From a virus (Duplodnaviria; Heunggongvirae; Uroviricota; Caudoviricetes), in IMG/VR virus record IMGVR_UViG_2534682078_000030: a DNA stretch of 30,947 nt, one strand, 5' to 3'. Position 1 is the first letter of the stretch. Each line of letters begins with the position of its first letter. This document shows positions 1 to 26,107 of this stretch, in pieces. The notes under the pieces are model-generated. The model was not told the DNA's origin, searched no databases, and saw only the letters and a program-made list of their open reading frames with translations. The position numbers and the translations under genes were made by a program.

Positions 1-22
1 GTATATTTATCTCATGGCTTGT

Positions 23-3481: not shown

Positions 3482-3793
3482 ATGACGACACCAACCAGAA
3501 GAATAAGTTTCTATCTGAAGCCAGCTGCCGTCAAGAACGAAGGAGAAGCATGCGCCTGGCTGGACAGCCTTACACCAGAAGCCCGCAAAAGCGGCCAACG
3601 CGTGGCTTTTCTGGCCGGGCTGGCACTTCTGAAGACGAATCCGGCAGAGGCTTACCGACTGGCCGCATGGGCTGATGATGAGATGTTACCTGTGACACAA
3701 ATCAGCTCAAAAAAGTTTGAAGCACAGTCTGCACCAGTGGCTAAGATAACCAGCCAGATGGCTGGGAATATCCGGGCGTTATTTCCTGAGTAA
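3482..3793 (+). CDS. parR: ParR/StbB-like centromere-binding adaptor
   Basis: 103 aa immediately after parM; RRISFYLKP...LDSLTPEARKSGQRVAFLAGLAL resembles the R1 ParR N-terminal ribbon-helix-helix region (RRTIAFKLNP...LDSIPQGERSRLNRAALTAGLAL). Confidence 0.7.
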   Translation: MTTPTRRISFYLKPAAVKNEGEACAWLDSLTPEARKSGQRVAFLAGLALLKTNPAEAYRLAAWADDEMLPVTQISSKKFEAQSAPVAKITSQMAGNIRALFPE

Positions 3794-3921
3794 AAGCATC
3801 TGCGCGAAAAATGCTCACATTTATAGAAACAGTATCATTCCATTTGGCGCACTTACTTCAATAATCGATCTGTTAAACAAATAGATTGTCTATTATCTAT
3901 CGATTAAAACGATCAATTATC

Positions 3922-3949
3922 TTGACAGTAATGTGCCTTTTTGTAAGAT
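3922..3949 (+). promoter_or_regulatory. Candidate sigma70 promoter TTGACA-16-TAAGAT
   Basis: Perfect -35 hexamer at 3922-3927, 16-bp spacer, -10 TAAGAT at 3944-3949, inside an AT-rich region with nested inverted repeats (TAATCGAT...ATCGATTA at 3861-3906). Sequence-only prediction. Confidence 0.4.
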
Positions 3950-4000
3950 CGTTCGCATTGTGAGCGACAAGATAATTGCGCGGCATTGTCCATGCAAAAC

Positions 4001-4026
4001 GCCCCAATAGCAGCAACTATTGGGGC
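4001..4026 (+). other. Stem-loop GCCCCAATAG-cagcaa-CTATTGGGGC (10-bp perfect stem, no U tract)
   Basis: Perfect inverted repeat read in the sequence, downstream of the candidate promoter. Confidence 0.4.
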
Positions 4027-4055
4027 GTAGAACTCGGTCGGACTCACTTAACCTG

Positions 4056-4140
4056 ATATGCGTGCCTTCCGAAGTAAATCAAAATGTGCGTCGTATATTT
4101 TATTGCTTACACGCACCTCTGTAAAGGCACGCATATTTTT
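4056..4140 (+). other. Long hairpin ATATGCGTGCCTT ... AAGGCACGCATAT with inner GTGCGT/ACGCAC stem, followed by TTTT; terminator/attenuator or structured RNA
   Basis: 13-bp arms at 4056-4068 and 4124-4136 enclose about 55 nt containing a second inverted repeat; the T run at 4137-4140 is directly before the SD and GTG start of the next ORF. Confidence 0.4.
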
Positions 4141-4157
4141 CCTATGAGGTAAATAAA

Positions 4158-4427
4158 GTGCGGGCTAAAACAGGTATTTGCAAGAACCCTCATCGTTATA
4201 ACCCAACATTTCTGTCTCTCCCTGAATATCAAGGACAAGAAGGTCGGCACAAATGCGCTGCCTGTGCTTTTGAGCTAGGCATAAAAGATGCGCTTGAAGG
4301 ACGCGCTATGGCTCAGAATGATTTAGTTTTAGCTAACATTCCGTTTAGCCAGGCTGGAACTGTAAGGCACAGAGATGCTTATGAAGCATATGTTCGTGGT
4401 TGGCGATTAATACACAGCAACAATTGA
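4158..4427 (+). CDS. Hypothetical 89-aa protein (GTG start), Cys-containing (HKCAACAFELG)
   Basis: ORF with SD GAGG 8 nt upstream of GTG and a strong intrinsic terminator directly downstream. I do not recognise a family. Confidence 0.5.
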   Translation: MRAKTGICKNPHRYNPTFLSLPEYQGQEGRHKCAACAFELGIKDALEGRAMAQNDLVLANIPFSQAGTVRHRDAYEAYVRGWRLIHSNN

Positions 4428-4435
4428 TATTTTTG

Positions 4436-4460
4436 AAGCGCCGATAAGGCGCTTTTTTTT
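4436..4460 (+). terminator. Rho-independent terminator AAGCGCC-gataa-GGCGCTT followed by T8
   Basis: GC-rich 7-bp stem and a run of 8 T, 9 bp after the stop codon at 4425-4427. Confidence 0.75.
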
Positions 4461-4989
4461 GTTTGCACGATAGTGCACAAGTTTGCACAATTTTTTTGAA
4501 CGACTTTTTGTACTTCCGGCCCGCGTGGCGGCTGGATCCGTCAAGGATCCGTACGTGCACAAAAAACGCGTTTTTTCTACGCGCAGGTGACGGGGGAACA
4601 GCCCGCGTTTCAGGGGGGTAAACAGCATTCCCTGAACGATGTCGCAGAGACACAACAGAATGGCCATATTTCTCACGCTGAGCATGAAAAAGGCGTGAGG
4701 GCTTTTGATTTGATGGGGTGAAAGGTAAGGCCGTCAAAATCGCACTGAGGCAGCGAGAACATACAGTCAACGCGGTGGGATTGCGTAAGAGTCTGACCGT
4801 CGATGGTGGCGATAAACTGGAAGGCGTCGTGAAATTATCTGATTGATACAGGAGCTGGAGAGCCGGGGCATAAATTTTTTATGCCCCGGCGAAGCAGCAG
4901 ACAAGCGAAGCGCGTCAGTGATGCGGCACCTTGCCGACCACACTTCATAAGTGCAAAATACGAGCAAAGAAATCAATGGAGGCTGTTTT

Positions 4990-5514
4990 ATGGTCATTAA
5001 TTACAAGCAGTTACGAGAAAAACGAGAGCAGGTAAAGGAAAGTTTTCGCCGCAATGAAGATCTGACCCCGCTTGTACACCTTGCTCAGGGAATTGTAGAT
5101 GCTTATGAAATCTCTCTGGAGCTGCCATCACAGACATGGACTGATAGCGACGGTAATCGCCAGCATTACGTTTCATGCGGACTGGAAACAACTGAAGGGT
5201 TTCGCAGAATGCCTTTATCTCAGATTCCTGCCTCTACCCCCAAAGCAAGGGGCGGCAATGATGAGCGAAAACTGATTTTCAGCATTGAGACAGTGGTTGA
5301 CGACACACCTGGCGAAGTCGCCTTCGTGCATACTCCTCTTTCGATCGCAATGTATAACGATGAAATACAGGTTCGCGTTAATAATAATATCGTGCCACTT
5401 AAAGAAGGTAATTCACCCTACACCACCGTTTGTGAAGCCATTCAATATTACGTTCTCTCTGAAATTGATAATCTCAAGCCTGACGGCACCCAGAAAATGG
5501 TTCAACTCTGGTAA
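4990..5514 (+). CDS. Hypothetical protein, about 174 aa, unknown function
   Basis: ATG at 4990 with GGAGG 7 nt upstream (the tracked ORF opens at 4951, but the start at 4990 has the SD). Terminated by a hairpin plus T run. No recognisable motif. Confidence 0.5.
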   Translation: MVINYKQLREKREQVKESFRRNEDLTPLVHLAQGIVDAYEISLELPSQTWTDSDGNRQHYVSCGLETTEGFRRMPLSQIPASTPKARGGNDERKLIFSIETVVDDTPGEVAFVHTPLSIAMYNDEIQVRVNNNIVPLKEGNSPYTTVCEAIQYYVLSEIDNLKPDGTQKMVQLW

Positions 5515-18871: not shown

Positions 18872-19447
18872 TGACATTCAGAATGAGTGAACAATCACGG
18901 ACCATAAAAATTTATAATCTACTGACCGGAACCAATGAGTTTATTGGTGAAGGTGATGCATACATTCCACCTCATACAGGTCTGCCTGCAAACAGTACCG
19001 ATATTGCCCCGCCAGATATTCCGGCTGGCTTCGTGGCCGTTTTCAACAGTGATGAGGCATCGTGGAATCTCGTTGAAGACCATCGGGGAAAAACCGTCTA
19101 TGACGTGGCTTCCGGCGACGCGTTATTTATTTCTGAACTCGGTCCATTACCGGAAAATGTTACCTGGTTGTCGCCGTATGGAGAGTATCAGAAGTGGAAC
19201 GGCACATCCTGGGTGAAAGATGCAGAAGCAGAAAAACTGTTTCGGATAAGGGAGGCGGAAGAACAAAAACAGCCTGATGCAGGTAGCCAGCGAGCATATT
19301 GCGCCACTTCAGGATGCCGTAGATTTGGATATTGCAACGGAGGAAGAGGCATCGTTACTGGCTGCATGGAAGACATACCGGGTATTGTTGAATCGTGTTA
19401 ATACAGCGGTAGCAGCGGATGTTGAGTGGCCAGTCGCCCCACAATAA
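18871..19447 (+). pseudogene. G: Tail fibre assembly chaperone (gpG/Tfa family), frameshifted at an A5 run (19265-19269)
   Basis: Frame 1 ends at 19401 with an atypical Cys-rich tail. The -1 frame from the A run encodes the conserved Tfa C-terminus [58 protein letters not shown], ending at about 19447. Confidence 0.6.
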
Positions 19448-24893: not shown

Positions 24894-25220
24894 ATGACTA
24901 AAAATACTCGTTTTTCCCCCGAAGTCCGTCAGCGGGCGATTCGTATGGTTCTGGAAAGTCAGGATGAATATGACTCACAGTGGGCGGCAATTTGTTCCAT
25001 TGCCCCAAAGATTGGCTGTACGCCGGAGACTCTGCGTGTCTGGGTTCGCCAGCATGAGCGGGATACCGGGGGCGGTGATGGTGGGCTCACCAGCGCTGAA
25101 CGTCAGCGTCTGAAAGAGCTGGAACGTGAAAATCGTGAACTGCGCCGCAGTAACGATATCCTTCGCCAGTCTTCCGCTTATTTTGCGAAGGCGGAGTTCG
25201 ACCGCCTCTGGAAAAAATGA
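24894..25220 (+). CDS. IS3-family transposase OrfA (helix-turn-helix, leucine zipper)
   Basis: 108 aa, [41 protein letters not shown]..., which I recognise as IS629/IS1203 OrfA. Confidence 0.9.
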
Positions 25221-26107
25221 TGCCACTGCTGGATAAGCTGCGTGAGCAGTACGGGGTCGGACCGGTATGCAGCGAACTGCATATTGCCCCGTCAACGTAT
25301 TACCATTGTCAGCAACAGCGACATCATCCGGATAAACGCAGTGCCCGTGCGCAGCACGACGACTGGCTGAAGAGAGAGATACAGCGCGTATACGATGAAA
25401 ATCATCAGGTGTACGGTGTGCGTAAAGTCTGGCGTCAGTTGTTACGGGAAGGAATCAGGGTGGCCAGATGTACAGTGGCACGTCTCATGGCGGTTATGGG
25501 ACTTGCCGGTGTTCTCCGGGGTAAAAAGGTCCGTACGACCATCAGCCGGAAAGCCGTTGCCGCAGGCGACCGCGTAAACCGTCAGTTCGTGGCAGAACGA
25601 CCTGACCAGCTGTGGGTGGCTGATTTTACTTACGTCAGCACATGGCAGGGCTTCGTCTATGTGGCGTTTATCATTGATGTGTTTGCCGGATACATCGTGG
25701 GGTGGCGGGTCTCATCGTCTATGGAAACGACATTCGTGCTGGATGCGCTGGAGCAGGCGTTGTGGGCCCGTCGTCCGTCTGGCACCATCCATCACAGCGA
25801 TAAAGGCTCTCAGTATGTGTCACTGGCCTATACGGAGCGACTAAAAGAAGCCGGATTACTGGCATCAACAGGGAGTACAGGCGACTCGTATGACAACGCG
25901 ATGGCTGAGAGCATCAATGGTCTTTACAAAGCGGAGGTAATACACCGTAAGAGCTGGAAAAACCGTGCAGAAGTGGAACTGGCCACACTAACGTGGGTGG
26001 ACTGGTATAACAATCGACGATTGCTGGGAAGGCTGGGCCATACTCCTCCGGCAGAAGCAGAAAAAGCTTATTATGCTTCCATCGGAAACGATGATCTGGC
26101 AGCCTGA
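25217..26107 (+). CDS. IS3-family transposase OrfB (DDE catalytic domain)
   Basis: 296 aa in the -1 frame relative to orfA, normally expressed as an OrfAB fusion by frameshifting at the A run. Confidence 0.9.

Follow-up and report, generated by a model that had tools for sequence, protein, structure and literature searches.

What does the DNA between the partition gene parR and the packaging genes of a P2-like prophage encode, and what are its unusually symmetric sequences for? We addressed this question in a 30,947-nucleotide stretch of viral DNA (IMG/VR record IMGVR_UViG_2534682078_000030; hereafter, the window), in which positions 3794–4427 comprise an AT-rich region followed by an open reading frame (ORF) of 89 amino acids (aa). 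An initial annotation had interpreted this region as a structured leader with nested inverted repeats, a promoter and two hairpins, and had proposed a regulatory RNA or attenuator controlling the ORF, or else an independent small RNA gene. We consider it probable that the region is a mobile phage cargo gene, or moron cassette, with a predicted cis-antisense RNA of ~95 nt repressing the tightly controlled 89-aa gene. The product of this gene is possibly toxic or defence-related. We infer from sequence that the RNAs are made, that their effect is repression and what the protein might do, while comparative evidence shows that the two predicted promoters, the terminator and the leader structures have been selected as a unit with the ORF.

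Predicted antisense promoter and terminator, and leader hairpins

The elements considered below are, in the order of their coordinates:

About 3852–4462: the cassette, comprising a sense promoter, a ~200-nt structured 5′ untranslated region (5′UTR), the 89-aa gene and its own terminator.
3862–3869 and 3899–3906: nested inverted repeats, TAATCGAT / ATCGATTA, 8 bp and perfect, around ATAGAT (3881–3886) / ATCTAT (3895–3900).
3922–3949, plus strand: sense sigma-70 promoter, TTGACA-16-TAAGAT (−35, 3922–3927; −10, 3944–3949), agreeing with the consensus at 10 of 12 positions.
3956–4157, plus strand: predicted 5′UTR of the mRNA, 201 nt, placed from the promoter position.
About 3994–4091, minus strand: predicted cis-antisense small RNA (sRNA) of ~95–98 nt, with a transcription start site (TSS) near 4089–4092, placed from its promoter and terminator.
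3996–4028, minus strand: antisense terminator (the "perfect stem-loop" of the initial annotation), with a 12-bp perfect stem, 3999–4010 / 4017–4028, followed by U3999–U3996.
4056–4140, plus strand: composite hairpin, with an outer 13-bp perfect stem, 4056–4068 / 4124–4136, and an inner stem of GUGCGU (4086–4091) / ACGCAC (4110–4115).
4125→4097, minus strand: antisense promoter TTTACA-17-TAAAAT (−35, 4125→4120; −10, 4102→4097), inside the composite hairpin.
4158–4427, plus strand: 89-aa ORF, with a Shine–Dalgarno sequence (SD) GAGGT at 4146–4150, a GTG start at 4158 and its end at 4427.
About 4435–4463, plus strand: intrinsic terminator of the cassette, GAAGCGCC-GATAA-GGCGCTT, followed by a T-run.

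An exhaustive HMMER search with the 89-aa protein returned 172 cluster representatives at E ≤ 1e-3. A word-indexed protein search found only near-identical proteins, a contig scan with the single protein yielded only 4 loci, and a 40-sequence protein alignment was too diverse for the locus scan. Homologous loci were gathered by tblastn together with locus scans, and the 360 nt upstream of the start codon were taken from 43 distinct loci. The 41 distinct loci of Enterobacterales type fall into about 14 sequence lineages; they have one common architecture, with sequences that are mostly unalignable across lineages. Among 36 near-identical copies, the single-nucleotide polymorphisms were too few to be informative, and none falls in the promoter hexamers or the 13-bp arms.

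The antisense promoter, which the initial annotation had overlooked, was found by a promoter scan. Its pattern, TTTACA-N17-TANNNT, has no other match on either strand of the 31-kb window, as compared to 0.09 matches expected. All 41 Enterobacterales-type loci carry TTTACA-17-TAnnnT 34–47 nt upstream of the start codon, with TTTACT in one lineage. Across 14 lineages, conservation reaches 0.99 in the −35 hexamer and 1.0 at positions 1, 2 and 6 of the −10 hexamer, as compared to 0.55 in the spacer and 0.49 in the flanks. Only the positions critical for sigma-70 are thus kept, which is the signature of a working sigma-70 promoter and not of shared ancestry.

The perfect stem-loop, previously given as 10 bp long at 4001–4026, is present and actually has 12 bp (3999–4028). 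It folds at −23.2 kcal/mol on the minus strand (z = −7.0) and at −21.6 kcal/mol on the plus strand (z = −6.4). In the window, a U-tract follows it on the minus strand only, the plus strand having no T-run, and the stem-loop is therefore best read as the terminator of an antisense RNA. Across the loci, the 3′ flank of this hairpin carries U's on the minus strand (UUUUG, UUUCCCUU) and is A-rich or neutral on the plus strand. In most loci, the GC-rich hairpin ends 63–71 nt from the predicted minus-strand TSS, the distance being 91 nt in the window and 133 nt in locus L072. MAFFT and RNAalifold brought the stems of the all-lineage sRNAs out of register, and a loop-anchored comparison was used instead. 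Among 21 distinct versions, 94% of the stem positions are paired, as compared to 62% (73% at most) in partner shuffles, and the stem contains 852 compensatory double changes against a shuffle mean of 148 (maximum 333). In 15 of 23 loci, the hairpin is more stable when folded as the minus strand (p = 0.04, with samples that are not independent).

The predicted antisense RNA folds at −34.3 kcal/mol (z = −3.4). Its whole length is complementary to the central stretch of the mRNA leader, a stretch that takes in the 5′ arm of the composite hairpin. In most lineages the predicted fold is alike, an AU-rich stem-loop standing between a single-stranded 5′ end and the terminator; the first stem-loop is less clear in the window. 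The Rfam search that the initial annotation had proposed for the region matched no family. At the gathering score, Rfam 15 gave nothing in the window region or in the homologous region of 10 related loci, and in E-value mode positions 3700–4600 gave no family, only sub-threshold terminator-like matches on the minus strand.

The same minus-strand RNA might act mainly in trans, with targets in the host or the phage, and overlap the leader only incidentally. In the lambdoid-type lineages, the 5′ segment GAGAUCUCAAGAAAACAUUC is near-invariant, while the inner stem of the terminator is free to vary, and a purely cis-acting RNA has no need of such seed-like conservation. However, this segment is not kept in the window, in the Providencia lineages or in L005, a diverged Escherichia coli P2-like prophage, and an mRNA helix (GAAUGUUUU / AAAGCAUUC) or a GATC palindrome would also account for it. 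Moreover, every copy of the RNA gene is physically linked to the ORF, at a constant distance. We regard a mainly trans-acting sRNA as very unlikely.

The composite hairpin, which the initial annotation had described as ending in a T-run, is present with its 13-bp outer stem and T5 run (4136–4140). It folds at −29.1 kcal/mol (z = −5.4) and holds the antisense promoter in its distal part. Together with the values for the stem-loop (z from −6.4 to −7.0) and for the whole leader, 3956–4165 (z = −3.3, dinucleotide shuffles), this places the structures well beyond chance. A plus-strand attenuator, or an independent plus-strand sRNA, would make a different use of this hairpin: transcripts from 3922–3949 would stop at 4056–4140, giving an RNA of ~185 nt or a gated read-through into the ORF. 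The perfect stem with T5 immediately behind it speaks for such an element, and in L005 the same place, ahead of the SD, is taken by a long stem of other sequence (GAGGTGTCATC / GATGAACACCTC), then ATTTTATT. However, only these two P2-type lineages combine hairpin and T-run ahead of the SD; in the other lineages the equivalent hairpin has no T-run, and no Rfam family matches. The composite hairpin was also not called by the terminator scan, because its stem encloses 55 nt. The conserved TGTAAAG in its 3′ part is better read as a minus-strand −35 element, because the matching −10 element is kept at exactly 17 nt. Such an attenuator and the antisense RNA are not mutually exclusive, and with both present the RNA would serve in anti-termination; as the explanation of the locus, we consider the attenuator improbable.

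In most lineages, a local hairpin takes up the SD in its 3′ arm. Compensatory changes (GC<->AU and CG<->UA) at two adjacent pairs, each in 4 sequences, support this SD hairpin in an RNAalifold analysis of 11 alignable leaders. By inspection, a stem-loop at the 5′ terminus of the mRNA also recurs with differing sequences. The proposal of the initial annotation that a regulatory RNA belongs to the 89-aa ORF holds, with the RNA predicted on the opposite strand and the attenuator unconserved.

The SD of the 89-aa gene overlaps a mini-ORF (ATG-AGG-TAA, 4144–4152), which is not conserved in other lineages and is probably fortuitous.

Sense promoter, repeat block and partition genes

The near-consensus sense promoter and the 89-aa ORF with its SD are as the initial annotation had reported them. 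The sense TSS is predicted at ~3956, and a GATC (3947–3950) overlaps the −10 element. In representative loci, the promoter TTGAnn-16..18-TAnnAT keeps its distance from the start codon, its −35 element standing at −200 to −223 (window, −236; L072, −269), and the predicted 5′UTRs of the homologous loci are ~170 nt long.

GATC sites are about 4-fold enriched across 23 representative leaders, with 81 found as compared to ~20 expected. Their positions are fixed relative to the sense TSS: at ~−46 (in 22 of 23 loci), on or beside the −10 element, at ~+96, which is the start of the sRNA, and at ~+125, in the spacer of the sRNA promoter. The window has GATC at 3866–3869, 3911–3914 and 3947–3950, the last two being the first two conserved positions. 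This placement suggests control by Dam methylation, SeqA or another GATC-binding protein. In many lineages (loci L045–L088), the GATC at the sRNA start is centred in an 8–12-bp palindrome (GAGATCTC or GTGATCAC).

The nested inverted repeats are present at 3861–3906 as claimed, and their extended arms (3861–3886 / 3895–3920) are 73% complementary. Contrary to the initial annotation, they act at the DNA level and do not belong to the leader RNA, since their position is upstream of the sense −35 element. A perfect 11-bp inverted repeat that the initial annotation had missed (3914–3924 / 3968–3978) flanks the sense promoter. The repeat block is kept only in the P2-type lineages, and in L005 it is 83% identical, as compared to 65% for the parR DNA and 57% for the promoter region. 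It would most simply be a regulatory site of the sense promoter of the cassette, and 3861–3920 is a candidate operator.

These observations bear on the possibility that the symmetric sequences as a whole are DNA-level protein sites, either a ParR centromere (parC) or operators, and not RNA elements. The region does follow parR, the nested repeats at 3861–3920 are outside the sense RNA, the block has diverged less than its surroundings (83% identity against 57–65%), and the 11-bp repeat brackets the promoter. An operator role for 3861–3920 alone is indeed quite plausible. However, the related phages P88 and PhiR44_2 carry ParM and ParR and none of these elements, the cassette also occurs in phages without ParMR, and both hairpins covary in the manner of RNA stems. 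In L005, the palindrome upstream of parM co-varies with ParR, while the repeat block does not. That protein-binding sites account for the whole of the symmetry is highly doubtful.

The identity of the nested repeats with parC was rejected, given that P88 and PhiR44_2 keep ParM/ParR (ParR 83% identical) without the block. As a ParMRC centromere, the block would travel and co-vary with parMR, and it does neither. The "after parR" of the initial annotation does not amount to a link with partition: we found no tie between the cassette and the partition genes, related phages with the same ParM/ParR being without the whole block.

Two further symmetric elements lie near parM. The palindrome GATTAATTAATC (2488–2499), just upstream of parM, is kept in P88 and PhiR44_2; in L005, in which ParR is only 55% identical, it shifts symmetrically to GGTTAATTAACC, with no co-variation in the repeat block. 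We regard this palindrome as a candidate operator of ParR, or else as a candidate centromere half-site. A pair of near-identical hairpins (AACGGGA...TCCCGTAAA), at 2391–2410 and 2464–2483, flank the stop of replication gene A (gpA) and the start of parM.

The cassette in its phage settings and its product

Homologous loci occur in unlike positions. The locus lies downstream of cI in L004, L060 and L072, a setting that includes a Salmonella P22-like phage, and between the Q antiterminator and the lysis genes in L003 and L094, the setting of lambdoid elements of Providencia and Arsenophonus; in L005 the cassette again follows parR, its ORF being unannotated there. Further homologous loci are found on IMG/VR contigs and plasmids, and PHROG scans of the neighbours revealed more copies downstream of CI-like repressors, by an O-antigen acetyltransferase and by tail-fibre genes. 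Each copy carries its own promoter and its own terminator, and homologous cassettes likewise finish with a hairpin and T-run. With its own promoter and terminator and its changing positions in phages, the cassette is therefore a phage moron.

The window is, by its sequence, a P2-like E. coli prophage of the genus Xuanwuvirus (Peduoviridae). Many E. coli strains, O111:H- 11128 among them, carry the cassette region at 100% identity, and the region is matched in 166 of 5,426 complete E. coli genomes, every copy being chromosomal; O111 and O157 enterohaemorrhagic (EHEC) strains are among the carriers. The window opens with IS1203, a truncated gpA, parM, parR and the cassette with its intrinsic terminator (4435–4455), and continues with the cos-proximal region, a 187-aa ORF and, on the minus strand, the portal and terminase genes. 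In Pfam, the parM product has StbA_N and ParM C-terminal domains, and that of parR is Plasmid_stab_B. Since the next genes are the 187-aa ORF, portal and terminase, with no Pfam reverse-transcriptase match, we rejected a retron, which the initial annotation had already judged unlikely. The absence of any tandem repeat in 3794–4157, the only TRF match being at 4474–4494, agrees with the earlier dismissal of a type III toxin–antitoxin (TA) locus.

The genome end of the Xuanwuvirus P884B11 maps to ~4509 of the window. The window shares ParM/ParR with the sister phages P88 and PhiR44_2, which rejoin its sequence from ~4456–4464 onward and have other genes between parR and cos; the cassette therefore sits in a variable cargo slot at the right genome end. 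In P2, tin/old occupies this slot. In P88 (L095, 3793–4460) and PhiR44_2 (L096, 3046–4448), it holds small ORFs annotated as ClpX-like zinc-finger or hypothetical proteins. These contents, almost all uncharacterised, confirm the cargo hotspot.

The 187-aa ORF (4951–5514), between cos and the portal gene, belongs to PHROG 5091 of unknown function and has no Pfam, NCBIfam or PADLOC match. It is present in PhiR44_2 and absent in P88, and its place is therefore a second variable cargo position. The cos-proximal sequence 4456–4560 is common to other Xuanwuviruses and holds the repeats GTTTGCACGAT / GTTTGCACAAT (4461–4491). Here, CGCGTGGCGG may resemble the cohesive-end sequence of P2/186. At the other side, the IS3-family element IS1203 (1–1130) interrupts the P2-type gpA (1132–2412), which RefSeq lists as a pseudogene without its N-terminus; with gpA broken, this prophage copy is therefore probably replication-defective. 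Rfam gathering-score matches at 19214–19410 and 25175–25291, to the IS009 RNA (182 bits) and the ALIL pseudoknot (121 bits), the latter a frameshift element of IS3 type, indicate further IS elements within the prophage. Near-identical elements from Indian E. coli strains are filed as separate "phage" records (CP025923 / NC_049344 and CP025874 / NC_049341). Given the kept ParM/ParR, Xuanwuviruses may persist as plasmids, although all 166 complete-genome copies are chromosomal.

The 89-aa protein has a hydrophilic, basic composition (GRAVY −0.54, pI 9.2) and lacks a transmembrane segment (maximum 19-residue hydropathy, 0.58). Residues C8, H12, Q25, R30, H31, Q65 and R70 are invariant, and C33, C36, S64 and H71 are nearly so; Cys8, His12, Cys33 and Cys36 form a presumed zinc site. 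AlphaFold2, run with a 51-sequence alignment, gave a pLDDT of 92.7 and an internal duplication in which residues ~22–46 resemble ~63–87, the duplicated unit of ~25 residues following the pattern LPxSQxGxxRHKxAxxAYxxG. The protein belongs to PHROG 3941, function unknown, and has no Pfam or NCBIfam match and no structural match in PDB or BFVD. PADLOC 2.0 matched neither it nor ParM, ParR or the 187-aa ORF.

In longer homologues (P0003–P0152), the domain is often duplicated or in tandem and usually N-terminal to a partner. Among 53 longer homologues, fusions to NOV_C/DUF3883 (25), HNH or HNH_2 (14), DndB (3), HEPN (1) and WYL (1) occur, the NOV_C fusions being predicted nucleases of the PD-(D/E)XK type. 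Such fusions would suit a module that binds nucleic acids or acts as a sensor in restriction-like or defence nucleases.

Proposed mechanism and known systems

In the mechanism that we propose, the antisense RNA would pair with the centre of the leader (3994–4091 in the window), and the long sRNA–leader duplex would lead to RNase III-type cleavage and to refolding of the leader. The convergent promoters, ~135 bp apart, could in addition interfere with each other. Cleavage or refolding and promoter interference would together keep protein synthesis low, in the style of type I TA systems, IS10 RNA-OUT or plasmid CopA.

Several observations weigh against this proposal. In thermodynamic modelling, SD accessibility shifts only slightly and inconsistently between the sRNA-bound and free leader, and pairing of the sRNA with the SD/start region gave no signal above shuffles and is nowhere conserved. 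The strand asymmetry of the terminator hairpin is modest (the 15 of 23 non-independent loci given above), and its U-tract is short or interrupted, being UUUUG in the window and UUUCCCUU in many other loci. Distant plasmid homologues (about 40% identity) have no antisense promoter, and the RNA control therefore belongs to one clade of the family. Finally, pairing in the window would open the terminator-like composite hairpin and so could raise, not lower, read-through; the effect may be activating, by anti-termination, in the window and L005 lineages.

A more specific combination is possible, though on balance unlikely: a new type I TA-like or abortive-infection module, with a labile antisense RNA, a stable mRNA protected by its 5′ hairpin, and Dam gating. 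The 89-aa product would then be an effector or sensor of a new type, soluble and zinc-binding. Dam methylation would gate both promoters through the positionally conserved GATC sites, and the protein would be made only on hemi- or unmethylated DNA, or upon collapse of host transcription during infection.

The comparison of the cassette with type I TA systems is drawn chiefly from established knowledge. The cassette resembles them in having a small protein gene, a long structured leader, an SD in a hairpin and a 5′-terminal mRNA stem, as well as an antisense RNA of ~70–100 nt from a convergent promoter, here predicted, and a prophage or plasmid location. Antisense RNAs overlapping the 5′UTR are described for hok/sok, zorO-orzO, symE-symR and ralR-ralA, the last an example of a soluble toxin (PMC3919570, PMC4041452). 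However, the cassette protein is hydrophilic, basic and probably zinc-binding, whereas the typical, though not universal, toxin is a small hydrophobic membrane peptide, and the cassette sRNA covers the middle of the UTR and not the translation-initiation region. No sequence or Rfam relationship to type I TA loci was found, and membership among them is unproven. For toxicity of the protein, the retention of the antisense promoter in 41 of 41 loci is only an indirect hint.

The IS10 pair RNA-IN/RNA-OUT, with its Dam-sensitive pIN promoter, is reportedly treated in work by Simons and Kleckner from 1983 and by Roberts et al. from 1985. The cassette shares with it convergent sense and antisense promoters, a stem-loop antisense RNA of ~70 nt (predicted in the cassette) and a GATC over the sense −10 element (TAAGATC in the window, TAGGATC or TATGATC elsewhere), with other GATCs at fixed positions. 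On the other hand, RNA-OUT covers the start codon of the transposase, while the cassette sRNA covers no start codon; the cassette has no transposase or terminal repeats, and Dam dependence is suggested here by GATC placement alone.

Antisense control of rep leaders is known from CopA/CopT of plasmid R1 and from plasmids of the pT181/pIP501 type. As in these systems, the predicted antisense RNA targets the leader upstream of the SD and has a two-stem-loop architecture, and as in that type of control the window has a terminator-like hairpin between target and SD. However, we found no conserved leader peptide in the cassette, and the regulated gene is not a replication gene. Moreover, pairing in the pT181 type creates a terminator, whereas pairing in the cassette would dissolve one.

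Phage morons include lysogenic-conversion and defence cargo in the P2 tin/old slot and in the lambdoid rex slot downstream of cI (PMC3594210). Like these, the cassette is an autonomous promoter–gene–terminator unit found at several classic cargo positions in unrelated temperate phages; it differs in that its gene and antisense RNA are uncharacterised, with no PADLOC match. No description of the cassette locus was found in the literature searched, and we found no protein or RNA family, defence model or paper that describes it. Its predicted design, antisense control, is familiar, while we found no account of the family itself.

Should no such RNA be made, all that remains is a promoter and a leader of unusually strong symmetry. 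If the reading that we favour is true, a conserved and so far unannotated sRNA/mRNA pair joins the cargo of temperate phages across Enterobacterales. The slots of the cassette (P2 tin/old, lambdoid rex and Q-lysis) are those in which anti-phage and lysogenic-conversion genes sit. The 89-aa protein, with its confident predicted structure, would then offer an entry point to an uncharacterised domain that recurs as the N-terminal module of many predicted nucleases, and the fixed GATC sites at both promoters suggest a testable link from the methylation state of the DNA to the expression of a cargo gene.

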